A DNA stretch of 64,000 nucleotides from Eubacteriales bacterium (GTDB lineage Bacteria; Bacillota; Clostridia; Oscillospirales; CAG-272): NCBI GenBank assembly GCA_045612715.1, contig JAZKZP010000125.1:9943-73942 (forward strand), written 5' to 3'. Position numbers and translations under genes: made by a program. The notes below the pieces were generated by a model. That model made no database searches. It saw only the letters and a list, made by a program, of their open reading frames with translations, and was not told the DNA's origin. This document shows, in pieces, positions 14,334-37,281 of the stretch (positions are counted from its first letter, which is position 1; every line of letters starts with the position of its first letter).

Positions 14334-14822
14334 TTACATTTCATCTAAAAGAATATCATCTGACAATGCATCAATATCAAAATTGTTACCTTCTACTGTT
14401 GAAGAAAGAAAGTTTTTAATATTCTCCATTGATTCAAGAGGTGTAGCCCCGATTTGCTCGGCAAGTTTAGTTACACCGAAATTAGCGAACTGTGTCAAGA
14501 AATCTATTTTCTTGAATTCAGTTTTTTCACCAAAAGCTAATTCAAGACGCTCATCTTCAGTGAGGTTTTCGGTGGCAGTTGATAAAATTGCTGCTTGAAA
14601 CATAAAATCAAGTCTACCATTATCATTATTTTGAATTACATTTCTCGGAACCGAGTGAGTATATTCCTCATCTGATGCAATTCTTTTATCATACATGATG
14701 CCTATGGACATTGAAAGCATATATATGCTATATTGAACTCTTGGCTTAAATAATGGAGCAAGAGCATCTATTGCCTTATCCCAATCTACGCCTCTCAAAG
14801 CTACATCTGTGGTTATTTCCAT
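14334..14822 (-). CDS. 162-aa mostly helical protein with an acidic C-terminus; last gene of the PLD-helicase/ABC operon
   Basis: ORF track entry. Its start overlaps the ATPase stop by 10 nt (14813-14822). No motif recognised. Its size and position fit a small adaptor or middle component. Confidence 0.7.
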   Translation of the reverse strand: MEITTDVALRGVDWDKAIDALAPLFKPRVQYSIYMLSMSIGIMYDKRIASDEEYTHSVPRNVIQNNDNGRLDFMFQAAILSTATENLTEDERLELAFGEKTEFKKIDFLTQFANFGVTKLAEQIGATPLESMENIKNFLSSTVEGNNFDIDALSDDILLDEM

Positions 14823-16768
14823 AAATGTCCCTCCTCTACCTTTGCAATATTCTTTTCTTCATTACTTACGATGGTATAAACTCTGCCGATATTTTCTTGA
14901 GCGAAAATCTCGTGTAAATCGTCTTTAGAGAACAAAATAACTTGTGGAGCAAACTGTGGAATTGCATCAATTACATTTTGTCTTTGGTCAGGGTCAAGTT
15001 TTGAAAATGGACCGTCGAGCACCAAAGGATATTCTTTAGCATTAAGATTTTCTTCGCTTTGAAGCATTCTCAAAATACCGCCGATATACGCAAATGATAC
15101 AACCGCAAATTGACCTTCAGACTTGGATTCATCTCCAAAGCTATCGGTTACACGAACAGAAAATTCTCTACTTACACTAACGTTACGTTTACTCGTCAAC
15201 ATTTCGTTAATAAGCTCTTGAATGTTTTCTTCAAGTCTTTGACTATATGCAACAGATTCATTATCAAGTCTGTCTTGGAAATATTGAAGAACCTTTTCCA
15301 TTATCTCAATTTTTTGGTTAATCTTGTCCACAGCAACAACCTTAGATGTCAACTCATCGTATTTCTTCATCCAAGTTTTAAGATAAATATCCAATTTTTT
15401 AAGTTCTGTAACCAATTCAGTAATTCTTGTATCCAAAGCTTTAACATCAGCTTCAGCCTTTTGGCGGTCAATAACGAGATGCTCTATATCCGGGCTCTTC
15501 TTTTCCGCCTCATCAAGTTCCCTAATTTTAACATCGCATTCATATGCCTTTTCACTGTTTTCAAGCACTAATCTGATATGATCCTCAACCTTACTCTTAT
15601 CATATCCCTGTTTCCATCTTTGTGCTGAACGAGTAAATTCTGTGTACAAATATGTATATGATGGCGGAAGCATAGCAAGATATTTTTTGAGATGTTCTCT
15701 TTGCTCTCTACATATCTCTTGTCCGCATATACATTCGGTAGTGCTATCTTGAAGTAAATAATTAATTAATGGCTTGTTGATACCGTTAGGCAATTTGCTT
15801 TGCTCTATCTTCAAATGAATCTTTTCTTTTGCATCCTCAACGGTTTTAGCCATTAAATGCATTGGATACATATTAAGAACAGTAGCACCAAATTCTTTTT
15901 GTTGAGCTTCGGAGTTGCGAATAAAAAGTTCTCTCTGAGCACGCAACTCTTTTCGTCTTGCCTCATATTCAGCTTTGGACTTACTACTACCTATTTTTTC
16001 GGATATTTCGGTAATTAATCTCTTCTTCTCTTCTCTTTCTTCAATAGCCTTGTTTTGAAGAAGTGTATATTTTTCAATACGAGCTTGTGCCTGCTCAATA
16101 TTATATTTTGCAGTAGCTATTTCGCTACCACTAGCAGCAGAACCCTTGCTTAGGTATAGTTTGCCAAGTACGGTGGTTTTCAAATCAGTTCTACCTATAT
16201 GGTTAATCGCTGCCTCTATAACATCAAGATCAAACATTGAATATAAAGCTTTACGAAGTTTGCCCGCGGAGTCTTTCCCTTTTACTCTAAGGTCGGCAAT
16301 CATACTCTCTCCGTCAAAGAAGAAATATTCTGAAAGACCGGATGGGAGCATCTTTTCGATTACTTCTTTAGGGCGATCCATACGCTTCCAGTTGTGGTCT
16401 TCATCTCTCTGATTCAAAGCAAAATCTTCTGCTATCTTTTCAGAATCATCAAGCCCTTTTTTATATTTGTGAGTTCTTGTCAAAGAATATTGAACGCCAT
16501 CGTGTTCAAAATCTATTCTGCCCATTACATTAAAGACCGCACCGTATGGTTGCTCACTTTCAAATTGAAGATTATATAGTCTATCAGTAGTTGTCTTGTT
16601 GAAATGAACCTGTCCATAAAAAATCCACTGAAACAACTGATGAAGTGTTGTTTTACCGTCACCATTCTTACCGTATATGATGGTTACTTTCCCATCAGTT
16701 GAACATTTGATTTGTCCATAATCCTTAAAATTTCGGAAATTTTCAAATTCAATTTTACTTATTCTCAT
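14813..16768 (-). CDS. DndD/Rad50/SMC-like ABC ATPase with a long coiled-coil insert (651 aa from ATG 16768)
   Basis: N-terminus is MRISKIEFENFRNFKD...IIYGKNGDGKTTL (Walker A). About 350 aa of heptad-rich sequence follows, including ECICGQEIC. The signature-like motif is KSEGQ, and LVLDGPFSKLDPDQRQN (Walker B/D-loop) resembles DTPLGRLD..HR.N of DndD. I prefer the ATG at 16768 (AAGGAGG upstream) to the track start at 16795. Confidence 0.8.
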   Translation of the reverse strand: MRISKIEFENFRNFKDYGQIKCSTDGKVTIIYGKNGDGKTTLHQLFQWIFYGQVHFNKTTTDRLYNLQFESEQPYGAVFNVMGRIDFEHDGVQYSLTRTHKYKKGLDDSEKIAEDFALNQRDEDHNWKRMDRPKEVIEKMLPSGLSEYFFFDGESMIADLRVKGKDSAGKLRKALYSMFDLDVIEAAINHIGRTDLKTTVLGKLYLSKGSAASGSEIATAKYNIEQAQARIEKYTLLQNKAIEEREEKKRLITEISEKIGSSKSKAEYEARRKELRAQRELFIRNSEAQQKEFGATVLNMYPMHLMAKTVEDAKEKIHLKIEQSKLPNGINKPLINYLLQDSTTECICGQEICREQREHLKKYLAMLPPSYTYLYTEFTRSAQRWKQGYDKSKVEDHIRLVLENSEKAYECDVKIRELDEAEKKSPDIEHLVIDRQKAEADVKALDTRITELVTELKKLDIYLKTWMKKYDELTSKVVAVDKINQKIEIMEKVLQYFQDRLDNESVAYSQRLEENIQELINEMLTSKRNVSVSREFSVRVTDSFGDESKSEGQFAVVSFAYIGGILRMLQSEENLNAKEYPLVLDGPFSKLDPDQRQNVIDAIPQFAPQVILFSKDDLHEIFAQENIGRVYTIVSNEEKNIAKVEEGHLWK

Positions 16769-16916
16769 TTGAAACCTCCTTATCAAGTTCGTCAAGTATT
16801 GCTTTTACAATATCATTTTTCGCTTGACTTTCACCGACCATCTTCTCAGCTTGAAGTTGTCTTTCTTTTTCTTCAATAAAGGAAACTAAATTATTAACTA
16901 TTTTCTGATTACTCAT
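16755..16916 (-). CDS. 53-aa micro-ORF bridging the helicase and ATPase genes
   Basis: Below the ORF-track size cut-off. Peptide: MSNQKIVNNLVSFIEEKERQLQAEKMVGESQAKNDIVKAILDELDKEVSNENK. Its ATG overlaps the helicase stop (GATGAGTAA at 16909-16917). Its 3' end overlaps the ATPase start and carries that gene's RBS. This is a translational-coupling layout. Confidence 0.5.
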   Translation of the reverse strand: MSNQKIVNNLVSFIEEKERQLQAEKMVGESQAKNDIVKAILDELDKEVSNENK

Positions 16917-18954
16917 CTAACTTTTCCTCCACATCTTCATAATCGTACACATCTACGTCCGAATAATTAAGACCATAGTGATATAAATAATTTTCAAATT
17001 CTGGTTTTAACTCATTCCAGTTTAATGCAAGCTTAGCATATTCGCGAAATCTTCTAAACTCTATTTTTGCCCATGCCGTAAGTTCTGTAGAAGGCAAAAC
17101 TATTACATCGTATATGTGCGCACTTTTTTTGCCATTATAAGTTCTTAAAATACGTCCACGCCTTTGAACAAATTCCCTATAATCATCGTTGCTTGAAAGA
17201 ATTAATGCACTCTTGATTGACGGAATATTAATACCCTCGTCCAAGCATCTTATTGCTGTCAACGCAGATATTTCTCCCTTGTTAAAGGCATCGACTAACT
17301 CCATACGTTCATGCATATTTTCTTGTGCAGTAAACTGACTTGCCTTATAACCAGCAGAAGAAAGAACGCGTTTTATAGACTGTATATGTCTAAGTTCCTC
17401 TCCGGTATTGTTATCGAACAATCTACCATCACCGCAATATACAACAACGTGATCTTGCTCTTTAACAGAATCTATTATTTTCATAATATACTTCTGCTTT
17501 TCTTCTGCCATGGAGATGGCACGCAATCTACCTCTCAATGCTATAACAAGTTTCTCGTGATCTATGCATACTTCATTTCTGAAACAAGAGGCTATTCGAG
17601 CACTAAAATAATTGAATTTTTCTTCGTCATCTTGCGTACTGTCTACAAATATCGGGTGATAATAATATGGAACAAGGTACCCTCTCTCAAGGGCATCTTC
17701 TATCGTTAGGCTAAATACTTGTCCTCCAAAGAAGTTCATTAATTCTTTACCCTTAGTTGCAGATGTACCACTAAATGGTGTAGCACTTAAACCAAGCATA
17801 AACTTAAACTGACAAGAAACATCCTCTGATTGATTTGTAAATCTATGTGCTTCATCTACAATCAAAAGTTTATCTTCATTGGATTTTATCAGTGTGTTTT
17901 GAAATCTATCCATGTTGAAAGAAGCAATTGTAGAAATAATTATGATCTGTTTATCCGGATTATATCGCTTATTAATAATTGCTTCTGTCATTTGTTGCTC
18001 CCACTTGGGATTTTCCGATGAAACAAGGATTATTTTAGCATCAATAAATGCTTTTTCCACATCTTCACACCACTGCTTAACTAAATGTTTATACGGAGCA
18101 CAAATCACAATCATCGAAGAATGAGTTTTAAGCAATTCTTTTGCAGAATAAATTGCTGTCCAAGTTTTACCGGTACCTGTTGCCATAACATAAAATCCGT
18201 GATAACCGTTATTGACCCAGGATGCAATGGCTTGCTCCTGGTAATCTCTCAATGTTATGGGATTTTTTGGACTCGAAGATGATTTTCTTTGTTCTATCAT
18301 TTGCAAAATATTAGATTCTGCACTTTTTTTATAATCATAAACTTTAACGAATTCATTGGTACCATTCCACAAAGAATCAAATTCTTTGATTTCGTCTTCT
18401 ATTCTTTCATTATCTTCATTAATCCAACTTTTAGCGGTTCTTATCTTCTCGTAATTATGTTGATAACCACTCAACGTAGCATTAGCTGATCCATAAAAAA
18501 CAATTATATTACCATCAAAATCGGTAAGAATACCTAATTTGTCGTGATAAATACCATAAGTTTCAGTTACTGCAATCTTAATATCCAAAATTCCTCTCGC
18601 TATTAATGTAGCTAATAACTGAAGTTTGGCGTCATCAAAAATTTCGATTTCGCGCATAAATTCTCGTGTAAAAGAGTTATTAATTACTTTTTCTCTTGCT
18701 TCGTATCCTAAATTAATAGCCTCAATGTCTTCGGCGGTTAATTGAGGACTTGCAATCAATTGAACTCGCCCATTATTTCTCGCGAGGGCAACAATACCAT
18801 CAATAATTGGTTCTAAAACTGAAGATGAGAAAAATCCAACGCTTCTTTTATATTCTTTTGTACATTTTAAAGCTGGAGTTAGAAAAGCTTTTGCTATGCT
18901 ATCCTGACCCATACTAACATAACTTTGTTTAATTTCTAAATCTCTAAAATTCAT
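16909..18954 (-). CDS. PLD-family (single HKD) nuclease domain fused to a DEAH-box SF2 helicase (~681 aa)
   Basis: HKD motif is IYHDKLGILTDFDGNIIVFYGSANAT. Helicase motifs are VMATGTGKTWTA (I), LIVDEAHRF (II), LGLSATP (III) and QRRGRILR (VI). The ATG at 18954 forms an ATGA overlap with the upstream stop. The track's 18960 start is a TTG. Confidence 0.85.
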   Translation of the reverse strand: MNFRDLEIKQSYVSMGQDSIAKAFLTPALKCTKEYKRSVGFFSSSVLEPIIDGIVALARNNGRVQLIASPQLTAEDIEAINLGYEAREKVINNSFTREFMREIEIFDDAKLQLLATLIARGILDIKIAVTETYGIYHDKLGILTDFDGNIIVFYGSANATLSGYQHNYEKIRTAKSWINEDNERIEDEIKEFDSLWNGTNEFVKVYDYKKSAESNILQMIEQRKSSSSPKNPITLRDYQEQAIASWVNNGYHGFYVMATGTGKTWTAIYSAKELLKTHSSMIVICAPYKHLVKQWCEDVEKAFIDAKIILVSSENPKWEQQMTEAIINKRYNPDKQIIIISTIASFNMDRFQNTLIKSNEDKLLIVDEAHRFTNQSEDVSCQFKFMLGLSATPFSGTSATKGKELMNFFGGQVFSLTIEDALERGYLVPYYYHPIFVDSTQDDEEKFNYFSARIASCFRNEVCIDHEKLVIALRGRLRAISMAEEKQKYIMKIIDSVKEQDHVVVYCGDGRLFDNNTGEELRHIQSIKRVLSSAGYKASQFTAQENMHERMELVDAFNKGEISALTAIRCLDEGINIPSIKSALILSSNDDYREFVQRRGRILRTYNGKKSAHIYDVIVLPSTELTAWAKIEFRRFREYAKLALNWNELKPEFENYLYHYGLNYSDVDVYDYEDVEEKLDE

Positions 18955-21674
18955 ATCCAATCCTCGTCCATATCTAAATCAATATCAATTTCTTCTGCGA
19001 TCAGATCATCGATATTATCCAAATTATCAATAGTGTATATTTCTTTTAGCGTTTCAGTAACAACTCCAGCAAATTCACTAATATCTAATTTACCTACTGG
19101 AGCAATTAAAGGTGCCGATAATCTGAATTGATTATATGTCGTACCTACAGTTAATTCCTTACTCCATTTCAAAACAATACTATATATCAGCCATTCATTC
19201 CAAGGTGCTGAAATTTGGGGTAATTTATGAAGACAATCAAGTGATGAAACCAAAACCGTTTCATTGACATTATCCTGCAACAATTCAATTACTTGATTAG
19301 CAATTTCCTCTGTTATACCTAGAAAATCCCATGTAGCCAAATATTGTTGATTCATCAAAGCATGCGTATCATTAAAAGAATTCAACAATTCTAAAATAGA
19401 GGATATATCATAGTGAGATTCTTTGGCAAATTCCATAATATCAGAAATGACTATTTCATCACTATTCAAAATCATATCTTTAATTTGTTCTTCTGGATTT
19501 TCTATATTAACATTATAATTTGCTATATATGGTCTCTTAAATTGATACTTATCGTGGAATAAATACTCCAATACCGAATACATAGCAGAAGGAACATCTA
19601 TAAATAATTTGTTTAATAAATCATTATCATCTTTTTGAATATACTCAAATATCTCTATGTAGTGCTTAGGCTTGTCGGCAGCAAGAAATTTTGATACTAC
19701 TGCATTCAAATAATTTTTATCATAATCAGTAATTTTCAATTTGCTTGCATGAATATACTTTCCAAACATATTTAAAATGCCATTGCCACTCAACGCATAA
19801 GCTATAACCACTTCCGTAACTCCTGGGAAAGCTTTATATATTACTTCTTTTTTAATGGGATAATCATATTGTTTAACATAGTTTACAATTTCCACATGGA
19901 ATGATGATGCAAACTCATTTTTAGATATATAATCCCTACGGAAAACAAATTCATTACCAAACAATTCTTTGAGTACACCCTGAAGATAATATTTGTTATC
20001 TATACCTTGTTCTAACAACTTTTCTTCAAATATGGAGAACAAAGTATTTGTAAGGAAAATCTCGGCTGGATTATCAATTATATATTGATATATCTCATCT
20101 GCTAATTCCTTAGAAATATATTGAGTTCTTTTGGGCATATACTTGCCTCTTCCACAAAGAACAGACAAGTCTGCAATTCTACCAGAGATTGCTCTATTGT
20201 TCTCTGGAACAGTTCGACAACCATATTCTTCTGAAGCTATATATCTAACAACATTCAATTCATCCTCATCGTAAATATCCAATCCCTGAGGATAGTACTT
20301 CTCTAATATTGCAGTATATACTTGAGAAAGTGACATTCTAGCTCTATGATAAGTAGATCCGTCCTTAGGAAATTCATCTAAGATAGCTTTTTCAATCAAC
20401 TCCTGAGGTATACCTTGGTTTTCGATAGCATCAGTAACCACTTCATCGTATGTTTTTTCATCAAAAGTATCAGGCAACTGAGCAATTATGTTACTAACAA
20501 TGCTGTCAATAGAATCATCTCCCATTATAAACAAGTCAAGTTGGGAGTCATAATAATATGATGAACTACCTGACTTTCTTAAAAGATAAACCATCTCATA
20601 ATATTTATCTTCAAAATAAGGCATGAGCTCTGATGAGGATAAAACGTTATCCCCATTTAATTCAGCTGATATTTTTGACAAAATGCGCTTCTTATTATGA
20701 TAAAATTCAAAAATTCTATTTGCTTTTGCTTCCAGCTGTCTAATTCTCTCACGAGTAATTCCAAGTTTTTCTCCAACCATTTGAAGAGTTTCACCTCTTG
20801 ATCTTCCTTTAAGAATAATTTCCATATTGGGAGATCTACCATAAATACTCGTAAATATTTCAAGTACTTCTTGTTTTATATCAAAAGAACACCATTCCAA
20901 AAAACGAAGCAATATCGCATATGCTTCCTCGTTTTCGAGTAATACATCTATATCAATACTTTTAACTTTGGCATCTGGTTTTTCTGCTATTTGATATACT
21001 AAATTTAAAAGTTCTTGTATATCTTCTTTTCTTGTGTATGCCTTAATATATCCTTGTACTTTGTTTTCCAATCTGTCTTTTGGAATGTTCTTAAATCTCT
21101 CATCTATTTCTCTTCGTTTACGCTCATATCTATTGGTATTACGAATAAATTCCGTAAACATATTCATTACAGGAATAATAGTATTGGGTGATGCATAACA
21201 TTGGCGTGCTAAATCTGTTCCCAATATATCTATTGCTTCTCTATATTTGCAACTTTCTTCTTTAAGTTGCTCTGAAATTTCGTCCGCTTCAACAAATGAA
21301 AAATCATTATTCAATATATTTTCTATATTCTCTTTAATTATTTGATTGTGTCTAATAGCATTCGCATTCACATCGCTATTTTCTTTAATTTCAATAGAAT
21401 TTCCCTTACTCAAGTTATAAAAAAAGAGATGCAATTCGTCAACAGTCTTTTTTCCCGCATTTCTAAAATTTGAAAAATCCGAAACTTTTGTCGCATACAA
21501 CTTATGCAAAGTTGTAATACCATTTCTCATTAAAACGTTAGAAGTGCGCACCGAAAAAGAGAGTGTTAAAACGCTCACATCTTCAATCATCGATAAATCA
21601 ACAGGATACATTTCCCAAAATGTTTTATCTATTATTAAATTTTCGTCAATATATCTTTTGTGATCTTCATTCAT
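18951..21674 (-). CDS. 907-aa protein with an RNAP alpha-CTD-like HhH domain, a sigma-70 region-4-like HTH and a large unknown C-terminal region
   Basis: LSFSVRTSNVLMRNGITTLHKL...FRNAGKKTVDEL aligns by eye with alpha-CTD (LELTVRSANCLK...NLGKKSLTEI). GETLQMVGEKLGITRERIRQLEAKANRIF aligns with sigma-70 region 4.2 (TLEEVG..VTRERIRQIEAKALRKL). The remaining ~550 aa are unrecognised. Confidence 0.8.
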   Translation of the reverse strand: MNEDHKRYIDENLIIDKTFWEMYPVDLSMIEDVSVLTLSFSVRTSNVLMRNGITTLHKLYATKVSDFSNFRNAGKKTVDELHLFFYNLSKGNSIEIKENSDVNANAIRHNQIIKENIENILNNDFSFVEADEISEQLKEESCKYREAIDILGTDLARQCYASPNTIIPVMNMFTEFIRNTNRYERKRREIDERFKNIPKDRLENKVQGYIKAYTRKEDIQELLNLVYQIAEKPDAKVKSIDIDVLLENEEAYAILLRFLEWCSFDIKQEVLEIFTSIYGRSPNMEIILKGRSRGETLQMVGEKLGITRERIRQLEAKANRIFEFYHNKKRILSKISAELNGDNVLSSSELMPYFEDKYYEMVYLLRKSGSSSYYYDSQLDLFIMGDDSIDSIVSNIIAQLPDTFDEKTYDEVVTDAIENQGIPQELIEKAILDEFPKDGSTYHRARMSLSQVYTAILEKYYPQGLDIYDEDELNVVRYIASEEYGCRTVPENNRAISGRIADLSVLCGRGKYMPKRTQYISKELADEIYQYIIDNPAEIFLTNTLFSIFEEKLLEQGIDNKYYLQGVLKELFGNEFVFRRDYISKNEFASSFHVEIVNYVKQYDYPIKKEVIYKAFPGVTEVVIAYALSGNGILNMFGKYIHASKLKITDYDKNYLNAVVSKFLAADKPKHYIEIFEYIQKDDNDLLNKLFIDVPSAMYSVLEYLFHDKYQFKRPYIANYNVNIENPEEQIKDMILNSDEIVISDIMEFAKESHYDISSILELLNSFNDTHALMNQQYLATWDFLGITEEIANQVIELLQDNVNETVLVSSLDCLHKLPQISAPWNEWLIYSIVLKWSKELTVGTTYNQFRLSAPLIAPVGKLDISEFAGVVTETLKEIYTIDNLDNIDDLIAEEIDIDLDMDEDWI

Positions 21675-21714
21675 TTTATTATCCTCATCGCAAAATTATA
21701 TAAATATATATAAT

Positions 21715-21743
21715 ATAATAACATATATCACGAGAAAAATCAA
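21715..21743 (-). promoter_or_regulatory. Promoter inside repeat cassette A (drives the 907-aa gene operon)
   Basis: On the minus strand: TTGATT (21743-21738), 17-nt spacer, TGT-TATTAT extended -10 (21720-21715), about 40 nt upstream of ATG 21674. Confidence 0.5.
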
Positions 21744-21828
21744 GCAAAATACACAAATACTTGTACTTTTCGACTATTTTTATTCTTTTATCTAATTTTA
21801 TCATTTTTTATTCTTGTTTGCAAGAAAA

Positions 21829-21852
21829 AGGTGTAGCGAGATTGCTACACCT
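21829..21852 (-). terminator. Intrinsic terminator in cassette A
   Basis: The minus strand reads AGGTGTAGC-AATCTC-GCTACACCT followed by TTTTTCTTG. Confidence 0.6.
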
Positions 21853-21950
21853 TAGGTCAATTCACATTATAAATGTTTATTTTTCAGTTTTTCAAGAGTT
21901 CTCCTTAAGGCGATAAAAATGTAAAAGCAAAATATTATATTTTCTACACA

Positions 21951-21974
21951 AAAGGAGCGCCAAAGCGCTCCTTT
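21951..21974 (-). terminator. Intrinsic terminator of the 1834-aa gene
   Basis: AAAGGAGCGC-(4 nt)-GCGCTCCTTT hairpin lies 24 nt past the stop at 21998, followed on the minus strand by TGTGTAG. It sits in tandem with the cassette A terminator. Confidence 0.6.
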
Positions 21975-21997
21975 ATTTGGGGGTTAAATGATAACAT

Positions 21998-24900
21998 TTA
22001 TTTCTTTGGCATAGGATATTTTTGTCCTGAGCGCATAGGAAGTGAAGATAATTTATTCTTTAATTGGGTTTCAGCTTCTCGTTTGCTATCATCATACTTT
22101 TTAACCAAAGTTGCCTTTTCATTTTTGAGTGTATTAATATCAAAGGTCAAGTTTTGAATTTTGTTCTTCAATATTCCTTTGCGAATGAAGAATATAATTC
22201 CTGTGCAAAGAAAAGTAAAAAATGACATAGACTCAAGTTTTTGTTTTGTAGCAGCAAGCTCTTTTTCTTTTTCAGTAATTTGAGCTTCAAGAGAAGTAGC
22301 TTTTGTATTGTACTCATTAGACAATTTAGCAAGTGTATTTTGACACTCTTCTTCCGCTATCTTTGTCTCACTCGTAATAAACTCTTCTCGTTTTTGCTTA
22401 ATTTCTGCTTCTTGTGCTTTGCGCTTATCTACTTCTTGTTTTCTGCGTTCAGCGTCTTCCTGTGCCTTACGGTAGGCTTCTTCAATAGAATTTCCCGATG
22501 CTACTTCCTTGGCTGTTCTCAACGCCTCTTCTTCACGTGTTTTGCGCTCGGCTGCTTCAGCATCCGATTGAACAACTACATTTTTGGAAGTTTTATTTGA
22601 TTTCGGTTTTAATTTTCTAGCCCAATATACAGTATGTCTGCCTTTTTCTTCATAAAATTTCTTATCCCAATCTTTTTCCCAATCACTTGGTTTTGATTCC
22701 GCATCACAATAAATTGCTGTTAAAGGAGATTCCATGAATACTTTGTTTCCCATTCTAACTACAGATATCGGGATGTGTGCAGTTGTAAGTGATGCACAAA
22801 AAGCAAAAGCATTATCATCTATGCTTCTGAGGCCCTCTGGAAAACGAATTTCACGGAGTGATGAACAACCACTAAACGCGTATGCATCTATGCTTTTCAA
22901 GTTATCATTAAATTCAACACTTACTATTGATTCACAGTCATCAAATGCAAACAAACCAATCTTTTCTACAGAGTCAGGGATAACTACACGAGCCTGATTT
23001 CCTTTATATTTTTTAAGTACTCCATCTTCTATCTCAAATATAGAATCCTCCCAGTTGGAACCTACATTAGCAACTTTAGACCAATCTACTTTATACTTAT
23101 TATCACCAACAGAGGATGTATTGTTCCATTTTTCATCCCAACCATTGGGTTTACTATTAGCTTCACAGTATATAGTCATATTATCATTACAGGACTGAAA
23201 TGCAAATGGTTTGATCGTTTTAACCGACGAAGGGATTGTAATGCTCACCATTTCCTCAGCCCAAGTGATAGCACACTCTTCTATGTTAGTTACTGAGTTA
23301 GGAACTTCAAAATGTTGCAAAGAATCACAAAATCCTAAAACATAAGAATTTAGAGTAGTAATGGAGTTGCTAAATATTGCTTCTCTCAATGAAGAGCAAC
23401 TAGAAAAAGCACTGTTTCCTATAAATACAACACTGTCTGGAATATTTACACTAACAAGTGAGGTGCATTCGTAAAATGCATTGTTTTCTATTTTTGTAAG
23501 CGTATCCGGAAAATCTATTTCAGAAAGTGCAGAACACTCACTAAATGCAAAAGAACTTATCTCCTTGAGTCCATCATTTAGTTGAACGCTTTCAATAGAT
23601 GTACATTCTGAAAATGCTCCGCAAGCAATTCTTTCCACGAAATCAGGCACGACCACATGTGACTGATTACCTTTATATTTCGTAAGTACTCCATCTTCAA
23701 TTTCGAAATCTTGAATTGATGTTGTTGTAGTTTTTGAAGTTGTTTTCTTTTTTGTGGGAGTTTTGGCTTTTGCGGGGGCTTCTTTCTCCTCATCATGATC
23801 TTTGACATTAGACCCCCATACTACAGGGCAATAATCGCCCCAGTGTAGCCAATTCCAATCTTCGTGCCATTTACTAGGCTTTGAATCAACCTCACAGAAA
23901 ATGGTAACTGCAGTACATCCAAAGAATGCAGAGTCTTCAATTTCCATAACGGAACTTGGAATCGTTACTTTTTCAAGAAATCTAGAATATGCAAAAGCAT
24001 TTTTGCATATTTTTGTTACGGAATTAGGAATAGTAACATTTTCAATATACATATTTCTATAAAATGCTTGATTCCCTATTTCTATTACGCCTTGTGGTAT
24101 TAAAACATTAGCGCTATTTCCGTTATACGATATCAAAACACCATCATTAATTTCAAAAGCATCCGCCTCGGACACGCTAGATTGATTGCTCTTTCCAGGA
24201 TAGAATATAGTTGTAGTATCACCAGACTGCTTTATTTTAATTTGAGAAGTTGAATCTGTAATAGTATTGTGTACACACTTAGTCTTCTTCATCCATTCTT
24301 CAAGCACTTCAATGAAGTTATCAATAACTGCCGTGTCTTGTGAATCTACTTCTCCACCGTGGTTATGATATGCGTGGAATTGATACCCACCTACTTCGGT
24401 AAGCAAGAATCCGTTTGCCTTATTATAAGTCGGATCGCTAACATCGTACCAAGTTTGATATAAATAAGCACAATTCAAGTCTGATATCACGCGTCTAACC
24501 TGCACATTAGGGTTAAGAAGTCCTTTTAATTTAAACATCATTTCCATGCTATCAAGCATACCTTCATTAAATGGTTGAGTATTAGCAGGTCTTGATGCGA
24601 TAGCAAAGCTGAAGGGTTTGGCATCAATGTGATTGCTTCCATCAGGGGTGTTTTCAGAAACTGTATAAGTCCAACCACTATTGACACCGTCATTAGCGCC
24701 AGAACGATATCCATCGGGAATTGCGCAATGAATTACATCGTCAATAGTAAATTGTCTCCTATCATGATACGTTGGAACATTGCTTTGAACTTGTTCTTTC
24801 AACGCTGCTTTCACGCATTCTTGATGGTTTGCTTGTTCAAATTCATGATTTTCACTTTTTGCAAAGTGAACTGAAGACTCATATTCTGAGGGATTTGCTC

Positions 24901-27502
24901 CCCAAACAACAGGAAGATTATCAATATTCCACAACTCCAACCAAAATCTCGGTTTAGATTCGGCTTGAACATGAATAGTTAAATTTTTACATCCTTCAAA
25001 TATATCAACTCCAGTGCTCTTAACGCTATCAGGTATAAAAACAGTCTTTAAAGATGTACAGTTTCTAAATGCTCCCTCCGCAATATTAGTAACCGTCGAA
25101 GGAATGTAAACACTTTTAAGAGAGGTACATCCTTGGAAGGTTTGCCATTCTATTTTTTCTATAGAATCGGGAAGTTTAATACTTTGTAGAGATGTGCAAT
25201 CTCTAAACGCTGCACCATCAATTCTAACAATCGTATTTGGAATATCTATACTCTTTATAGTCTTACATCCATCAAATGCACGTTCACCAATTTTCGTAAC
25301 CGAATCGGGAAGCACAACATGATCTGCAGATCCTGTATATTGTTTTAGAATTCCTCTATTTACCGTAAATTCAGCATTATCTCCTATCGTTTTGCCAACA
25401 ACTCTCTTGCGCTCTGCTTCTTCTTTGGCTTTGTGTTCAGCTTCTTTAGATATGCAACCTAACTCTTCTTTATCGTGAATTTTAGAGTGATTATTTAATT
25501 CTGTAGCACCCCAAACTACATTATGTTGGTCTTCATTAAATGAATAATCAAGCCATTCTTCATCCCAACCATCCGGCTTTGATTCCGCTTCGATATAAAT
25601 GGTTGTACGATTGCAAGAATAGAACACTCGTGCTCCCATTGTTTTAACTGTTTTGGGAATAAAAATACTCTCAAGGTTTTTACATCCCGTAAACGCCTCT
25701 TCGCCTATGCTAACTACAGAATCGGGAATGTTTATACTCTTCAGCGACTTACAATATGAAAATCCTCCAGCGCCAATTTCCTTAAGTGAGTCAGGTAACA
25801 CAATGGTTTTCACAGAATCAAGAAAACTAAAAGCATTATCTCCAATTATTACAACAGATTCACCCACAATCAGTTCTTTTGCCGATGCACAGCCGCTAAA
25901 AGCAATTTCACCAACAAATTCAACAGAATCAGGAATAACAATTTTTTCTAGCGCAGTATTATCTGTAAATGCTGCTGTTTCAATTACCTTTGCAGAATTA
26001 CTAATAACCAATTTTTTGAGTGAATTGTTTTTCCCGAGACCGCCCGAAATAGTTATTACAGAATTTGGAATGATCAATTCCTCTATTGCGGGACACCCCT
26101 CAAAACACGCAGGCATTTCAGTAATTCCATTACCAAATTGCACTTTCTTAAGAGAAGGACATCCACTAAAAGCAGAAGAGTGGATTTGGGTAACATTATC
26201 GCCTATGGTTACAGTGACAAGGTTCTCGCAATTATGGAAAGCCATTGGAGAAATGCTTTTAACCACGTTCGGAATTACAACATGTTTTTTATTTCCGTAG
26301 TATTTGAATAAGTCACCATCATAGATACCAAATTCATCCTCGTCATAGTCGTCATCTCCAATATCATTATTATAATCGTCTACAGACTCCTCGCATTCAT
26401 CTTCATCATCTCCCTCATCAGAATCCAAACTATCAAAATCGATTTGCATTTTATTTTTTAACGACTTTGCTGTCATTTTTCCTATAGCAATTGGACTATC
26501 ATTAACAGTCAAGGCTTTGAGAATATCCAAAACATACCCATAATGTTCTTCGTCATCGTAACCTTTAACATTAGCCTTCCATGTAAATACAAGAGATTTA
26601 TCATTTTCTGTTTGAATTACAAGGCATGTTTGGGACAAATAAGTCGAAAGTACATTTTCAATAATTGTGAACTTAATTGGGATATTAAGAATTGAAACAA
26701 AAGGACTCTTTTGCAAATTGTGTATTTTTACACCTCTTACTTGAGAGAGGGTTTGAACATCAAATTCTCTTTTGATGGTGTCATCAATATCCAAGGAGTC
26801 AAAAGAAACCTCTACTTTGTTCTTATACAATTCTTTGCCATCATCATTAAAATACTGATAACCGTAAATAGTACAAATACCATTATCGTCCTCATCTTCG
26901 CCATCTTCGCTAGCATAATCATTTATTACAAAATACTCCGCTGGAATTTTGAATTTTACATCATCACAAATCGTATATGTACCGCTAGAAGTTGTATTGC
27001 TCTCTTCCAAAGCTCTATTTTTTTCCCTATTTGCTTTGAGTGTTTGCTCGTAGTAACTAAAATCTTCGGCATCATATCCGTCAGTTTGGTCTACGTAAAC
27101 ACGGCACATTGCACCTTCCTCATACACCGCGTTGTGTATAAGTTTCTTTACATCATAGTTAGGAAAGTCCTCATCAAAAAAGCCTTCAAGGGCACTTATT
27201 ATGTTAGTGGCTGTCAATGCTTCTTCTTCATCTTCTGCCTCTTGCTCTGAACTTCTACCGTCATAATCATCTTCAAGTAATTGATTTATGTAGTAATCCC
27301 CACCGCCATCCACATCACACAACTGACGGGTAACAGTTACAACATTATCACTTACATTAATCCAGCCGATTGTGTCTTTCGGGTATGCTTGGTATTTGAG
27401 AAGTAATTTTTCTACCTTTTCCGCTAATTCTTCATCATAAATACCGTAAGCCACAAAACTCGAACTTGATGAATTTGTTACAAAATCAGTCCTTATTTTC
27501 AT
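21998..27502 (-). CDS. Giant multi-module LRR_5 protein (1834 aa) with a conserved N-terminal domain, coiled coil and a possible C-terminal tail anchor
   Basis: N-terminus is MKIRTDFVTNSSSSSF. There are five LRR_5 modules, each ending in a cap of the form (E/D/N)SKPxxWxxxW...VxW(G/A/S): ESKPDGWDEEW, ESKPRFWLELW, DSKPSKWHEDW, NSKPNGWDEKW, ESKPSDWEKDW. Acidic linkers separate them. The C-terminus has a Lys/Glu coiled coil and then the hydrophobic stretch FFTFLCTGIIFFI. Confidence 0.85.
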   Translation of the reverse strand: MKIRTDFVTNSSSSSFVAYGIYDEELAEKVEKLLLKYQAYPKDTIGWINVSDNVVTVTRQLCDVDGGGDYYINQLLEDDYDGRSSEQEAEDEEEALTATNIISALEGFFDEDFPNYDVKKLIHNAVYEEGAMCRVYVDQTDGYDAEDFSYYEQTLKANREKNRALEESNTTSSGTYTICDDVKFKIPAEYFVINDYASEDGEDEDDNGICTIYGYQYFNDDGKELYKNKVEVSFDSLDIDDTIKREFDVQTLSQVRGVKIHNLQKSPFVSILNIPIKFTIIENVLSTYLSQTCLVIQTENDKSLVFTWKANVKGYDDEEHYGYVLDILKALTVNDSPIAIGKMTAKSLKNKMQIDFDSLDSDEGDDEDECEESVDDYNNDIGDDDYDEDEFGIYDGDLFKYYGNKKHVVIPNVVKSISPMAFHNCENLVTVTIGDNVTQIHSSAFSGCPSLKKVQFGNGITEMPACFEGCPAIEELIIPNSVITISGGLGKNNSLKKLVISNSAKVIETAAFTDNTALEKIVIPDSVEFVGEIAFSGCASAKELIVGESVVIIGDNAFSFLDSVKTIVLPDSLKEIGAGGFSYCKSLKSINIPDSVVSIGEEAFTGCKNLESIFIPKTVKTMGARVFYSCNRTTIYIEAESKPDGWDEEWLDYSFNEDQHNVVWGATELNNHSKIHDKEELGCISKEAEHKAKEEAERKRVVGKTIGDNAEFTVNRGILKQYTGSADHVVLPDSVTKIGERAFDGCKTIKSIDIPNTIVRIDGAAFRDCTSLQSIKLPDSIEKIEWQTFQGCTSLKSVYIPSTVTNIAEGAFRNCTSLKTVFIPDSVKSTGVDIFEGCKNLTIHVQAESKPRFWLELWNIDNLPVVWGANPSEYESSVHFAKSENHEFEQANHQECVKAALKEQVQSNVPTYHDRRQFTIDDVIHCAIPDGYRSGANDGVNSGWTYTVSENTPDGSNHIDAKPFSFAIASRPANTQPFNEGMLDSMEMMFKLKGLLNPNVQVRRVISDLNCAYLYQTWYDVSDPTYNKANGFLLTEVGGYQFHAYHNHGGEVDSQDTAVIDNFIEVLEEWMKKTKCVHNTITDSTSQIKIKQSGDTTTIFYPGKSNQSSVSEADAFEINDGVLISYNGNSANVLIPQGVIEIGNQAFYRNMYIENVTIPNSVTKICKNAFAYSRFLEKVTIPSSVMEIEDSAFFGCTAVTIFCEVDSKPSKWHEDWNWLHWGDYCPVVWGSNVKDHDEEKEAPAKAKTPTKKKTTSKTTTTSIQDFEIEDGVLTKYKGNQSHVVVPDFVERIACGAFSECTSIESVQLNDGLKEISSFAFSECSALSEIDFPDTLTKIENNAFYECTSLVSVNIPDSVVFIGNSAFSSCSSLREAIFSNSITTLNSYVLGFCDSLQHFEVPNSVTNIEECAITWAEEMVSITIPSSVKTIKPFAFQSCNDNMTIYCEANSKPNGWDEKWNNTSSVGDNKYKVDWSKVANVGSNWEDSIFEIEDGVLKKYKGNQARVVIPDSVEKIGLFAFDDCESIVSVEFNDNLKSIDAYAFSGCSSLREIRFPEGLRSIDDNAFAFCASLTTAHIPISVVRMGNKVFMESPLTAIYCDAESKPSDWEKDWDKKFYEEKGRHTVYWARKLKPKSNKTSKNVVVQSDAEAAERKTREEEALRTAKEVASGNSIEEAYRKAQEDAERRKQEVDKRKAQEAEIKQKREEFITSETKIAEEECQNTLAKLSNEYNTKATSLEAQITEKEKELAATKQKLESMSFFTFLCTGIIFFIRKGILKNKIQNLTFDINTLKNEKATLVKKYDDSKREAETQLKNKLSSLPMRSGQKYPMPKK

Positions 27503-27540
27503 AAATGTTCTCCTTTATAATTTTATTTTTCGGGATTATT

Positions 27541-29874
27541 TTATCCAAGCAGTCCCTCTTGTTTCAACCACTTACCAAAAGACATTCCAAGTATTTGTTG
27601 GGCATCCTTTTGCAGAGTGTTTAACTGCTTTGCAATATCGGGATTATCTGCAACAAGTTCTCCCGCGGTCTTAAAAGTAGTACCATTGGGATATCTGCGT
27701 TTGAGTTCTTCAATGGTTTTGGAATGATCTGCTTTTGGTCTCCCACCCTTTACATCGGAAGGTTTATATCCATAGGCTATCAAGAAATCCGCACTGCTTG
27801 TATAGCCAAGTTGTCTATAAAGCTCTGTAACTGTTTCTCCCCATTTTTTATGATCTTTATTTAAACTAACAATTACTTTATCGGGATATGCTTCATCAAG
27901 TTTACCAAAGAGAGTGTCCAAACGTTTCTTAATTCTTTCTGGCTCTTCACCAGGCTTATAAAGTACCCCAGCAGTAGCTGCTTCTACGCTTTTCGGTGCC
28001 TCATTAATCAAAATGCCTTCTTGTACCAAATAATCACGAGTGGAAAGCCCTGTAAATCGCTTGGCATTATTTGAAACAATAGCCAAATCAAGGTCAGCAT
28101 TGTCGGCGATTAAGCTTGTTACATCGGTCTTTTTTGCTTTGTTTTCATATCTTTGTTTTAGCAAAGAAATAAGTGCATAAAAGTCAGTTTTAGTAGTTTT
28201 AAGAACCCCCAGCGTTTCAAAGTGATCTTTAATGCTCTTGCCATATTTTCTACTTACATATTCTTCAACTCTATGCTCAGGAATATTAGATTCCACAATA
28301 ATTGCGGTAATTTCTGGATTAGTTAAAAGGATACCCGATTCCTTAGATTTCGCAACAATTGATAATATAAGATCTTCACATGCTGCATCTCTACTCTCTT
28401 TTCTCGCAATTTGTGCTGCCTCGCGTTGTATGGCTTCAATATCTTCGTTAAAAGCTCTTTTAACAAGCAAATCCAGAAGATTATTTAAAGAAATAATTAT
28501 AATATTACCGCCATTTTGTTTTATCTCTACCGCTTTTTCAAGCAAATTTTTACCGTAATGATTTACCGTATCTAGATTGCCGTTTTTAATATGCTGTTGT
28601 TTTTTTACGAATCTATCAAATTGATATATTTCATCAGTTTCAACAACAAGAATATTTGTAAATTCGGATACATCTTGTACACGTTTCCAATGCAATTCAG
28701 TTAAGACATCTGAAACTGATGACAAAATCTCTTTCGAGTTTTTGGGGTCAGCGTATACTGAAAACTTCATTCTATGATTTAGAGAGCTAATTTCATCAAT
28801 ATATGGATCATATATGGAATGCCACATCTCATAATTTGATTTATTAGATACTATGCTACCAATTTTATCATATTTGTCTGGTTTAAACGAAGCACCACCA
28901 TGAGTACGAATATATTTTATAGCGGAATCTATTCCGCTTTCAAATTCTAATTTGCTACCACCGAACGAACATATTTTAGACCAAAGTTCAGGTTGTTTAT
29001 TAGCTAATGCATCACATCCTTCGAATGCACCATCTTCAATAAAATTAAGCCGAGTTGGTAAATTTATACTCTCAAGATTTTTGCATCCTGCAAATGCACC
29101 TTTCTCTATTCCATATATGTTATATGGCAGAGTTACACTTTTAAGACTAGTACATCCTTTAAATGTATCTTGTGGAACGTATGGTGAACCTACAAAATCA
29201 ATGTTTTCAAGATTTTTGCAATCCATAAAAATTCCAGGCTCTTGCATATAAGCAGATCCCTCTATACTTTTGAATTTGCATCCTTTGAAAACCTCGCTGG
29301 ATAATTCCATTATTGCGTGAGACAAAAATAATGTTTCAAATTGCATTTTGTCTTCATTGTAAGATAAAAGCTTTCCATTACTGATTTCAAAATGGTCAGG
29401 TACATAATTTGCGGCTTCTAAAGAAAAATCACCCCAATCAAAAGATCTGGTACAAAAACCATCAGTTTCGTCAATGTACACTTCAGCACACGTACCACCT
29501 CTGGCAGCTGCAGCTTTCACTAACTTTTCAAGGTGCATTTTTTGATCATTTGATAGACTTGGTAAAAAGACAAAAAGCGCGGGAAGAATATTATAGGCCT
29601 TTCTCGCTTCTCTATTGTCTGCGTCTATTTCTCTACTTGAACGATTATCTTTATAGCATTGATTGTGCACATAAAAACGTCCATGATCCAAAGTAGTTGT
29701 TATGGAAGTAACACCATTGAAAATTTCAAGACGTCCCACTTTATAGTCAGATAAAGCTTCTTGCTTTCCACCCAAAATTTTTGTTATAAAATGCGCAATT
29801 TCGTCATCCCCAATGCCCAAGGCAATAAAGCTCGAACTTGATGAATTTGTTACAAAATCAGTTCTAATTTTCAT
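27541..29874 (-). CDS. 777-aa paralog: same N-terminal domain, a short LRR_5 block, then repeated small helical modules
   Basis: N-terminus is MKIRTDFVTNSSSSSF, identical to the 1834-aa protein, with a shared ...VY(I/V)D(E/Q)TDG motif about 130 aa in. LRR_5 units include FKGCTSLKSVTLPYNIYGIEKGAFAGCKNLESINLP. C-terminal modules end in G(I/V/L)L: HFETLGVLKT, RDYLVQEGILIN, GKWLKQEGLLG. Confidence 0.85.
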   Translation of the reverse strand: MKIRTDFVTNSSSSSFIALGIGDDEIAHFITKILGGKQEALSDYKVGRLEIFNGVTSITTTLDHGRFYVHNQCYKDNRSSREIDADNREARKAYNILPALFVFLPSLSNDQKMHLEKLVKAAAARGGTCAEVYIDETDGFCTRSFDWGDFSLEAANYVPDHFEISNGKLLSYNEDKMQFETLFLSHAIMELSSEVFKGCKFKSIEGSAYMQEPGIFMDCKNLENIDFVGSPYVPQDTFKGCTSLKSVTLPYNIYGIEKGAFAGCKNLESINLPTRLNFIEDGAFEGCDALANKQPELWSKICSFGGSKLEFESGIDSAIKYIRTHGGASFKPDKYDKIGSIVSNKSNYEMWHSIYDPYIDEISSLNHRMKFSVYADPKNSKEILSSVSDVLTELHWKRVQDVSEFTNILVVETDEIYQFDRFVKKQQHIKNGNLDTVNHYGKNLLEKAVEIKQNGGNIIIISLNNLLDLLVKRAFNEDIEAIQREAAQIARKESRDAACEDLILSIVAKSKESGILLTNPEITAIIVESNIPEHRVEEYVSRKYGKSIKDHFETLGVLKTTKTDFYALISLLKQRYENKAKKTDVTSLIADNADLDLAIVSNNAKRFTGLSTRDYLVQEGILINEAPKSVEAATAGVLYKPGEEPERIKKRLDTLFGKLDEAYPDKVIVSLNKDHKKWGETVTELYRQLGYTSSADFLIAYGYKPSDVKGGRPKADHSKTIEELKRRYPNGTTFKTAGELVADNPDIAKQLNTLQKDAQQILGMSFGKWLKQEGLLG

Positions 29875-30956
29875 TTTGCTTCTCCTTTTGTTCTAAATTC
29901 ACTATCACAAAATACTATTTCGGGCATCAGTGGACAACCGCCCATACAAAGCTCATACTTGGGACAACCTTTACAAGCACTTCGCATTTTATTGCGGAAT
30001 TGTTCAAAGGGTTCACTGTTCCATGCTTCGTCAATCGACATATCACGTAGTGAAACCTGATACTTTTTATCCTGGTCAAAGCTACAAGGCACCATAGTCA
30101 TATCAGCACCTATATAGCAGCTATATCTACCTCCCTCACATGTGTCGAGGGATTCAGGCAAGATGTTTTTGCAATATCTAATAGCTCCGGGAACGTTGCA
30201 GCTATCCATACCGACCTTGAAGGGATGTTTTTTATCAAACTCCTCAAAGAATTCTTTGACTCTGGGATCATCAACCGAAAGCATATTTGCTCTCGAGCCT
30301 TGTCCAGCCGGTTTGTGCAAAAGGAATATAACCGCATTGATACCCTTGGGAAATGAATTATTCTTTAGGCGTTCTATTGCCTCATCAATGCTATTTTTTC
30401 CAAGAACATAGTGAATATTGGTTTTCACACCTGCCTCAAGGAGCATTTCAATTGCTCGATATGTATACTCACTACGATACCAGCTAACTGCAATTGCGCC
30501 ACAATAATCCTTGCACAATTGTGCAATTTCAGGAGTCATACCGTACCCTGAGGTTGTAAAATTGGGAACAAGGTAATTTTCTCGACAAATTTTGAGTATT
30601 TCTTCAAAATGTTCGTGTTGATCTGGATCTCCTCTACCGCCAAGAGCAAATTGATTGCATCTAAGCTTTGATTGCTCTGCAATCCACTTGAAATCCTCAA
30701 CCGTCATATTTGGTTCTTCAACAAATAGACCACTTTGATAGCAACCAATTCCTGCTTTGGAGCAAAGACCAGTTTTGCCGTGAATACAGTGCCCCATAAT
30801 TCCCACATCAATAAGATGTGGATATGAAGCCATAAATGGATCTACGCCCGTATCTTTCCCATTTTCATCAAGCACACCCGTGCGCATATAAAATCCGCTC
30901 TCGGTATCAAAAAAACTCTTAAATTTATATTGTTTATCTTCTATTGTGTATTTCAT
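29871..30956 (-). CDS. Radical-SAM-like enzyme with a SPASM domain and a non-canonical N-terminal Cys cluster (361 aa)
   Basis: The C-terminus CEGGRYSCYIGADMTMVPC...CKGCPKYELCMGGC matches the SPASM signature Cx2Cx5Cx3C. LGGRGDP occupies the place of the GGEP SAM-binding motif. No CxxxCxxC is present; the only N-terminal cluster is HCIHGKTGLCSKAGIGCY (Cx8Cx6C). ATGA overlap with the 777-aa gene. Confidence 0.75.
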   Translation of the reverse strand: MKYTIEDKQYKFKSFFDTESGFYMRTGVLDENGKDTGVDPFMASYPHLIDVGIMGHCIHGKTGLCSKAGIGCYQSGLFVEEPNMTVEDFKWIAEQSKLRCNQFALGGRGDPDQHEHFEEILKICRENYLVPNFTTSGYGMTPEIAQLCKDYCGAIAVSWYRSEYTYRAIEMLLEAGVKTNIHYVLGKNSIDEAIERLKNNSFPKGINAVIFLLHKPAGQGSRANMLSVDDPRVKEFFEEFDKKHPFKVGMDSCNVPGAIRYCKNILPESLDTCEGGRYSCYIGADMTMVPCSFDQDKKYQVSLRDMSIDEAWNSEPFEQFRNKMRSACKGCPKYELCMGGCPLMPEIVFCDSEFRTKGEAK

Positions 30957-30992
30957 CGTTTCTTCCTCAAAAGTATATTTGAAAATAATATT

Positions 30993-31627: not shown

Positions 31628-31648
31628 TTAAAATAGGTAAATATCGTA

Positions 31649-32179: not shown

Positions 32180-32265
32180 AATCTTTTGTATCCTTTCTTG
32201 TAACCATAAATTTACAATATAAAAACAATTTCTCGGAATTCACTTTTTATGTGATTGTATATAAT

Positions 32266-37219: not shown

Positions 37220-37281
37220 ACTTTAGTTGTCGCTTTTTGGCAACACCTTAAGAAAGTTGTCAGTTTTTGAAGACAATATGA

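Follow-up and report, generated by a model that had tools for sequence, protein, structure and literature searches.

The locus and its duplicated cassette

Within the 64-kb stretch of a Eubacteriales genome analysed here (the window), two successive operons begin with copies of one non-coding sequence, which we call the cassette. Some related loci carry the cassette once, and the block of genes between the two copies is absent from these. A repeat search of the window returned the cassette as repeat D7, an ungapped direct repeat of 157 nucleotides (nt) whose copies, A and B, are 78% identical (34 mismatches; blastn E = 8e-34). In this region of the window every gene is on the minus strand. Read in that direction from a promoter near 37190, the order is a DUF4926 gene, small open reading frames (ORFs), an AAA_15/21 ATPase gene, a gene for 131 amino acids (aa), the gene of a WYL regulator, a 206-aa gene, a 291-aa gene and copy B. 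Past copy B follow genes for a 176-aa Zn-ribbon protein, a 169-aa protein, a radical S-adenosylmethionine (rSAM)/SPASM protein and two leucine-rich repeat (LRR) proteins, LRR777 and LRR1834, then a terminator and copy A. Past copy A come a 907-aa gene, a PLD-helicase gene, an SMC-like ATPase gene and a 162-aa gene. Further BspA-LRR genes and a galactan-utilisation cluster occupy the rest of the window. The cassette is made up as follows (P1 and P2 are promoter-like elements).

21696..21852, minus strand: repeat D7 copy A, regulatory head of the 907-aa/PbeA-like/PbeC-like operon
32247..32403, minus strand: repeat D7 copy B, immediately 3' of the 291-aa gene and heading the 176-aa/rSAM/LRR block
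21829..21852, minus strand: hairpin A, a 24-bp perfect palindrome with T-run at 21821-21828 (fold and terminator scan)
32380..32403, minus strand: hairpin B, a 24-bp palindrome with T-run at 32372-32379, possibly terminating the WYL operon and possibly an operator
21795..21823, minus strand: P1 of copy A, TTGCAA (21818-21823), 17 nt, TGaTAAAAT (21795-21803)
32346..32374, minus strand: P1 of copy B, TTGCAA (32369-32374), 17 nt, TGaTAAAAT (32346-32354), with upstream TG in the promoter scan
21715..21762, minus strand: P2 of copy A, box AAGTATTTGTnnATTTTGCTTGA (21740-21762), TTGATT (21738-21743), 17 nt, TGtTATTAT (21715-21723)
32266..32313, minus strand: P2 of copy B, the same box AAGTATTTGTnnATTTTGCTTGA (32291-32313), TTGAAA (32289-32294), 17 nt, TGtTATTAT (32266-32274)

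Identity between the copies is unbroken only over the palindrome, the T-run and the P1 -35, a run of exactly 36 nt (21817-21852 = 32368-32403). On the minus strand this core reads AGGTGTAGC-AATCTC-GCTACACCT, then TTTTTCTT. An earlier reading of this DNA (the first-pass annotation) had described an alignment of ~145 bp with a 36-nt core; the core stands and the repeat is somewhat longer. The same annotation had set copy A before the 907-aa and PLD-helicase genes and copy B before the 176-aa, rSAM/SPASM, LRR777 and LRR1834 genes, as we find them. Mismatches between the copies are unevenly spread. Only 2 of the 34 fall in 59 nt of elements (the palindrome, the 5-nt spacer, TTGCAA and TGaTAAAAT of P1, and the -35 and TGtTATTAT of P2), against 32 in the remaining 98 nt (Fisher p = 5e-6, a value that is indicative only, the elements having been partly picked for being conserved). 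The three elements outside the identical core, tested alone, give p = 0.02. This pattern fits selection on putative terminator and promoter features.

Both P1 and P2 have the near-consensus hexamers, 17-nt spacing and TG of sigma-70 promoters, and P2 of copy B scores 10 of 12 positions in the promoter scan, again with the upstream TG. The start codons lie at 21674 (ATG of the 907-aa gene) and 32179 (ATG of the 176-aa gene). Since sigma-70-like matches are common in this AT-rich DNA (72 found in the promoter scan, 59 expected), the conservation pattern is the stronger argument for the two elements: the P1 hexamers are invariant across all cassette sequences, and in both P1 and P2 the spacers vary and the hexamers do not. 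P2 is the promoter that had been proposed earlier (TTGATT or TTGAAA, 17 nt, TGt-TATTAT) and is confirmed as a sequence feature. P1, which overlaps the T-run of the hairpin, was absent from that proposal. A P2-like promoter (TTGAAA, 17 nt, TGgTATAATATTATATATAT) is also found at 8633-8675 of L070, one of the related loci (here L050 to L079) used for comparison. It stands 5' of a decayed DUF262-like frame, an Mrr_cat gene and a 904-906-aa homologue of the 907-aa protein, in a locus with no WYL gene and no palindrome. Its presence in L070, a distant relative, suggests that P2 is the older promoter of the 907-aa operon type. A small peptide from a 41-codon ORF in copy A was considered and rejected, as the frame meets a stop after 3 codons in copy B.

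The surrounding genes and signals are these.

33932..34924, minus strand: WYL regulator gene (HTH_11, WYL and WCX), whose product is a candidate binder of the palindromes
32413..33288, minus strand: 291-aa gene, the last before palindrome B
21853..32246, minus strand: inserted block of 10,394 bp, not in L050 or L051-53, with the 176-aa Zn-ribbon gene (31649-32179), the 169-aa gene (31118-31627), the rSAM/SPASM gene (29871-30956), LRR777 (27541-29874) and LRR1834 (21998-27502), and also a B-type 5' untranslated region, its own terminator and ~95 nt of unique sequence
21951..21974, minus strand: intrinsic terminator of LRR1834 itself (-17.2 kcal/mol)
14334..21674, minus strand: operon headed by copy A, with the 907-aa gene (18951-21674), the PbeA-like PLD-helicase gene (16909-18960), the PbeC-like SMC ATPase gene (14813-16795) and the 162-aa gene (14334-14822)

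Copy A heads a Pbe-like anti-phage module, because PADLOC assigns the PLD-helicase to PbeA (3e-201) and the SMC-like ATPase to PbeC (2e-76), and NCBIfam places the helicase in dnd_restrict_1, a DNA phosphorothioation system restriction enzyme (1e-111). The 907-aa protein combines, by Pfam, an RNA polymerase alpha-CTD-like domain with a sigma-70 region 4 helix-turn-helix (HTH); it has a weak match to MzaA, and in PADLOC it matches no Pbe model. In relatives (L051, L070-L072), genes for DndB, DndC, DndD, DndE and GmrSD come right after the Pbe-like module. The window ORFs that were scanned include no dnd genes, and the module may be orphaned in this genome.

Candidate roles of the palindrome

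The first-pass annotation had already read the core as a hairpin with a T-run on the minus strand, and folding agrees (-15.7 kcal/mol, z = -4.75 against shuffles), as does the terminator scan, which marks both copies. The stem has 9-10 bp with 5 G-C pairs, the loop has 6 nt and TTTTTCTT follows, a make-up typical of intrinsic terminators. Hairpin B begins 9 nt past the stop codon (TGA) of the 291-aa gene. L051 shows a compensatory change, with T-A in place of C-G as the innermost pair of the stem; the loop varies both there and in L077. The fold of the whole 201-nt region gave nothing convincing besides the hairpin (z -2.65). A separate terminator for the gene upstream of copy A, also claimed earlier, is the LRR1834 hairpin listed above, which is kept in L077 with loop changes. 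The top sigma-70-like match of a 14-kb scan (21866-21895, minus strand; TTGAAA, 18 nt, TATAAT; 11/12) lies in the block's unique tail and is aimed straight into hairpin A; its -10 is not kept in L077 (TAAAAA).

A second role is suggested by where else the palindrome occurs. A search allowing 3 mismatches gave one extra match in the window and 0 in 100 shuffles, and the expectation of a chance match with <=3 mismatches in the window is estimated at <0.05. The match lies in the promoter of the WYL gene's own operon.

37191..37248, minus strand: promoter of the operon that runs from the DUF4926 gene through the WYL gene to the 291-aa gene, with the look-alike palindrome AGGTGTTGC-caaaaa-GCGACAACT (37225-37248), TTGACA (37214-37219) and TATAAT (37191-37196)

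The look-alike palindrome is followed here by 5 nt, TTGACA, 17 nt and TATAAT, with the ATG ~40 nt on. The same layout is present at the orthologous promoters of L050, L051 and L078 and at a second L078 promoter 5' of an RNase_T gene, and the cassettes match it through P1 (palindrome, 5 nt, TTGCAA, 17 nt, TAAAAT). The left-arm consensus of the WYL-operon promoters equals the cassette arm AGGTGTAGC, and their right arms (nnGACAACT) match the cassette arm at 7/9 positions. A degenerate pattern built from these instances has no other match in the window or in loci L050-L079. Palindrome boxes were seen only where a WYL gene is present, and in L077, a contig too short to show whether it has one. We infer from this recurrence that the palindrome is a candidate operator of the island's WYL regulator as well as a candidate terminator. 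The first-pass annotation had tentatively given the operator role to the AT-rich stretch between hairpin and -35; that proposal gives way to the palindrome, the layout of which recurs at the WYL-operon promoter.

The 330-aa WYL protein contains the domains expected of such a regulator in Pfam (WYL 2.3e-9; WCX 1.1e-5; HTH_11 1.5e-3, below its cut-off) and is called WYL by PADLOC (3.6e-26). Its closest solved relatives are WYL-domain PDB chains, at a weak E of ~6e-5, one of them deposited as a DeoR-family regulator; we take these chains to be DriD. Two further sequence features stand beside the regulator. At the WYL-operon promoters (37160-37290; L050, L051, L078) the right half-site aaaaaNNGACAACT is repeated directly upstream, ~31 nt before the second copy, which makes three half-sites in total; the cassettes have no such extra copy. 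The 10-mer AAGTATTTGT also lies just 5' of the WYL gene (34948-34957) and was judged too weak to be used.

The palindrome might instead be an intrinsic terminator only. In that case its likeness to the WYL promoters would be coincidental, the terminator of copy A an inert passenger, and the two operons would share homologous constitutive promoters. The hairpin energy and T-run are typical, the stem of L051 changes in a compensatory way, and identical stems serve as ordinary terminators in unrelated genomes. Yet cassettes and four WYL-island promoters have the same -35/-10 spacing, with a left arm that agrees 9/9 with the consensus of those promoters, and the search statistics given above speak against coincidence. 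Moreover, the look-alikes at the WYL-operon promoters are imperfect palindromes without T-runs and so are not terminators. On balance, we consider a terminator with no second function unlikely.

The inserted block and its junctions

The 907-aa protein is 95% identical to its counterpart in L050 and 71% to those of L051-53. In these loci the order is WYL gene, 29x-aa gene (291 aa in the window), an intergenic region of ~180 nt and the 907-aa gene, with no rSAM/LRR block. The 29x-aa and WYL genes are adjacent in L050 and L078 and one gene apart in L051 and the window. The single intergenic cassette of these relatives is 95% (L050) and 94% (L051-53) identical to copy A and ~80% to copy B, and among relatives the cassette is found only at this orthologous position. 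The stretch 2371-2528 of L050 aligns to the window twice, once where the 291-aa gene runs into copy B and once where copy A runs into the 907 operon (copy A and the operon together are 95.5% identical to L050 over 7.4 kb). Relative to these loci, 21853-32246 (10,394 bp) is thus an insertion within a regulatory region, and that region is present on both of its sides. By parsimony the state without the insert would be ancestral, because both L050 and L051-53 show it.

The block has been sampled a second time. L077, an independent Logan contig reported in 3 samples, encodes a 176-aa protein of the same 90%-identity cluster as that of the window, and its block matches ours at 92.6% identity over the initial 2.6 kb. 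The contig opens within the core (ACCTTTTTCTTGCAAATAAATATA...) and continues into a B-type promoter, the B-type copy being well conserved. Towards its other end come the LRR genes, a shared terminator and the unique tail, and it stops in the hairpin, within the same 24 nt. These ends are compatible alike with a contig broken at a repeat and with a circular molecule. The earlier idea that the cassette marks a module boundary is supported by the single copy in L050 and L051-53 and by a block in L077 that is bounded by the core at both ends.

Identity to L050 is ~87% for the 291-aa gene and 98% for the palindrome window, against only 66-76% for the promoter half of copy B. On these figures copy B is a diverged homologue and no fresh duplicate. 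Just past the core, the copy B variant (CAAATAAATATAA) is shared with L050 and L077 and the copy A variant (CAAACAAGAATAA) with L051, so that the sequences are mosaic around the core. The window and L051 are 86-98% identical over a tract that starts at the palindrome and reaches roughly codon 75 of the 907-aa gene; upstream of this tract the figure is 40-78%, and past its downstream end 46-82%. Third codon positions agree at 76-84% in codons 1-75 and at 36-64% in the next 325 codons examined. Such a codon-position pattern fits a recombination tract better than selection at the protein level, and these comparisons together point to homologous exchange at the conserved head. Two further differences from L050 lie in the WYL operon: an insertion of ~2 kb (34925-36965) with an AAA_15/AAA_21 ATPase gene (35407-36288), the 131-aa gene and small ORFs, and a second one (33302-33922) that consists of the 206-aa gene, which stands between the WYL gene and that for 291 aa. 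The island is mosaic in several places.

Homologues of the 29x-aa protein fall into 38 clusters, and other relatives show that gene content after the 29x-aa gene can differ. L078 and L079 have a WYL gene and a 289-aa gene as a pair and then different cargo (a 187-aa gene and a Macro-domain gene). The site is therefore a variable slot, and the head accompanies some cargos only. In these two loci the homology to the window stops at the stop codon of the 29x-aa gene, past which there is a P1-like promoter (TTGCAA, 17 nt, TGaTATAAT) but no palindrome. A remnant of a duplicated gene end was considered for the other side of the block and rejected, since the unique 146 nt from the LRR1834 stop to hairpin A do not resemble the 29x-aa gene at its 3' end.

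Taken together, we read the repeat as the regulatory head of a defence operon, present twice since a gene block sits inside it, and the palindrome as an operator for the WYL regulator as well; we put the probability of this reading at about 0.6. In the ancestral state, the one seen in relatives, a WYL operon ending in the 29x-aa gene would have been followed by the palindrome with its T-run, the tandem P1 and P2, and the 907-aa/PbeA/PbeC-like operon. In the present state, the 10.4-kb rSAM/SPASM and BspA-LRR block stands between two head copies, its own head (copy B) being a diverged homologue of the resident one. The join would most likely have been made by homologous recombination within the core, or the core may later have been homogenised by gene conversion. 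Either way, both operons would begin with the same signals. The palindrome would terminate the upstream operon and, as operator of the protein with winged HTH (wHTH), WYL and WCX domains, would unite three units in a single regulon, namely the WYL operon, the rSAM/LRR block and the Pbe-like operon.

Several points weigh against this reading. The arrangement in the window is seen in one contig only, and L077 corroborates the boundaries of the block, not what lies beyond them. The data would fit insertion or deletion, and homologous or other recombination, alike. In L078 no palindrome follows the 29x-aa gene, so the head is not universal in the slot. As to the operator, the right arm of the WYL-operon palindromes departs from the cassette at 2 of 9 positions. 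These promoters are, moreover, homologous to each other, so that their resemblance to the cassette counts as roughly a single independent coincidence. For the cassette palindrome, the stem change of L051, being compensatory, favours a structural hairpin over a protein site. Finally, a site centred near -52 would suit an activator, whereas the defence-linked WYL regulators described so far (BrxR and CapW) are repressors.

The flanking cores also invite another explanation, in which the palindrome serves site-specific recombination (as an att- or dif-like site with inverted 9-bp arms and a 6-bp centre) and the 10.4-kb block is a mobile cassette that integrates and excises there. Direct repeats of the identical core stand on either side of the block, both ends of L077 fall in the same 24 nt, as those of a circular form would, and homology to relatives breaks exactly at the palindrome. 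However, homology between copies A and B extends ~120 nt past the core through both promoters, which is not expected of att sites, and elsewhere in the island a palindrome of the same type occupies normal promoter positions. The palindrome is missing from other homologues of the 176-aa block (L054, L055, L057), and a Pfam scan of the larger window ORFs, block included, found no integrase, resolvase or transposase domain. We regard a dedicated recombination site as improbable.

It is very improbable that the tandem arrangement is an assembly chimera, that is, an L050-type chromosome and a separate block molecule or locus joined through the core. The exact shared core is short (36 nt), the Logan contig L077 does break there, and exact look-ups of the window's 176-aa and 907-aa proteins returned no record. 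Such a chimera would nevertheless require two consistent misjoins, and the 291-aa, 176-aa and neighbouring proteins are all encoded on one NCBI contig (95,577 bp). A separate 9-kb circle without replication or recombination genes is also implausible.

Further copies of the core had been called for in the first-pass annotation and were sought in several collections. The hairpin stem with any loop has 49 matches in 185,579 species-representative genomes, all of them unrelated hairpins with other loops and flanks. The invariant 20-nt core (JGI metagenomes and IMG/VR) and the hairpin and P2 box (IMG/VR) gave chance matches in unrelated sequence, or none, and blastn of the cassette against PLSDB plasmids and INPHARED phages gave nothing significant. 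Nothing was returned for the 291-aa protein by tblastn against plasmids and phages or by a related-locus search in IMG/VR. Rfam contains no relevant family, either for the window at the gathering threshold or for 21600-32500 at E <= 1. Homologues of the 176-aa gene in L054, L055 and L057-59, and the distant homologues of the 907-aa gene in L070-76 (where an Mrr gene precedes), have no cassette. Of the earlier notion of a portable insulator-plus-promoter unit, the terminator and promoter sequence features hold; free portability does not, the cassette being confined to this locus type in the collections searched. A REP- or MITE-like dispersed element (repetitive extragenic palindrome or miniature inverted-repeat transposable element) that landed in two intergenic regions is scarcely credible, for although the repeat is short, palindromic, intergenic and AT-rich, it has n=2 copies in 64 kb (blastn E <= 0.01; pattern search allowing 3 mismatches), no homologous copy in the genomes, JGI metagenomes, IMG/VR, PLSDB or INPHARED, and only the orthologous position in relatives.

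Some observations concern the cargo and the wider window. LRR1834 and LRR777 share an N-terminus, MKIRTDFVTNSSSSSF, together with the ribosome-binding region (27422-27516 and 29794-29888), and of the other LRR genes in the window 4/5 share a different one, MSNINDF(V/I)IEDG. The MKIRTDFVTNSSSSSF N-terminus may be a candidate recognition sequence for the rSAM enzyme. Within the LRR1834 gene, a stretch of 1.1 kb (24282-25448) is 97% identical to LRR genes of L051 (18826-19992) and L077 (7073-8199), with flanks at 78-88%, which suggests a probable recent exchange between BspA-type LRR genes. A second duplicated region (38640-38960 and 52682-53002, minus strand; repeats D6 and D18, ~77-83% identical) consists of two small AbrB/SpoVT-like genes (MKATGIVRRIDDLGRVVIPKEIRRTMRIREGDP...) with a conserved upstream box, AAAATTCCTnTTACGACAAAAACTAAAA, and C-terminal halves that diverge.

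Significance and likeness to known systems

Biologically, the duplicated head is of an ordinary kind and provides a good regulatory lead; apart from that lead, it is simply an intergenic region that has been duplicated. As a lead, it offers a candidate regulon for an uncharacterised WYL regulator in gut Clostridia, in which three promoters (its own, that of the Pbe-like operon and that of the rSAM/LRR operon) have the same palindrome layout. It is also a clear example of a defence island gaining a 10-kb block at a conserved regulatory junction, with each operon keeping a promoter. If the WYL protein binds the palindrome, BspA-type LRR proteins and their rSAM partner would be tied to phage-defence regulation, and one sequence would be both terminator and operator. 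More tentatively, and in our view doubtfully, the head could be a plug-in docking unit, its palindrome being at once terminator, WYL operator and homology patch, so that a cargo operon with a version of the head, once recombined into the slot after the 29x-aa gene, would join the regulon. If so, the rSAM/SPASM and BspA-LRR block would have been recruited to an anti-phage regulon beside the Pbe-like system.

Mosaic gene exchange at conserved boundary sequences has been proposed for module junctions of lambdoid phages and for hotspots of defence islands. The present locus resembles these in that gene content changes between relatives at a short conserved non-coding stretch, and the tract of high identity starts exactly at the palindrome; it differs in being one locus type, known from a handful of sequences. 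The cassette also resembles compact intergenic regions in which a terminator is followed by a sigma-70 promoter (9-10 bp stem, 6-nt loop, T-run, 17-nt spacing, TG). Unlike ordinary regions of this kind, its T-run overlaps the P1 -35, it has two tandem promoter-like elements, and the whole unit is duplicated around a block.

At the level of gene content, the nearest system is DndBCDE-PbeABCD, a phosphorothioation-based anti-phage defence (Xiong et al. 2019, PMC6459918). The copy-A operon encodes a PbeA-like and a PbeC-like protein, and relatives carry DndBCDE immediately downstream. The first gene of the operon (907 aa), by contrast, has no match to a Pbe model, and dnd genes are missing from the window ORFs scanned.

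For the regulator, the closest parallels are wHTH-WYL-WCX regulators of the BrxR/CapW type, which have R-BOX operators in defence islands. CapW was reportedly described by Blankenchip et al. in 2022, and it also figures in a later paper (PMC11662680). In a single defence island, BrxR recognises 11-5-11 inverted repeats at two promoters (Picton et al. 2022, PMC9122601). Here too a WYL regulator with HTH, WYL and WCX domains stands at the head of a mosaic defence island, and boxes lie at the regulator's promoter as well as at that of a downstream defence operon, as R-BOX1 and R-BOX2 do, although in our case the likeness is one of sequence. The box is of the form 9-6-9, not 11-5-11, and it lies upstream of the -35, whereas R-BOX lies downstream of its promoter. 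The cassette box, in addition, is perfectly palindromic, has a T-run and could double as a terminator for the operon before it.

In position, the box is more like the site of DriD, a WYL activator of Caulobacter, which recognizes a 20-bp palindromic site 1 nt 5' of the -35 at didA and 17 nt from it at recA (Gozzi et al. 2022, PMC9186387). A site just upstream of the -35 resembles the 5-nt spacing found here. The two proteins are distant in sequence, and DriD controls DNA-damage genes, whereas our candidate regulator stands in a defence island.

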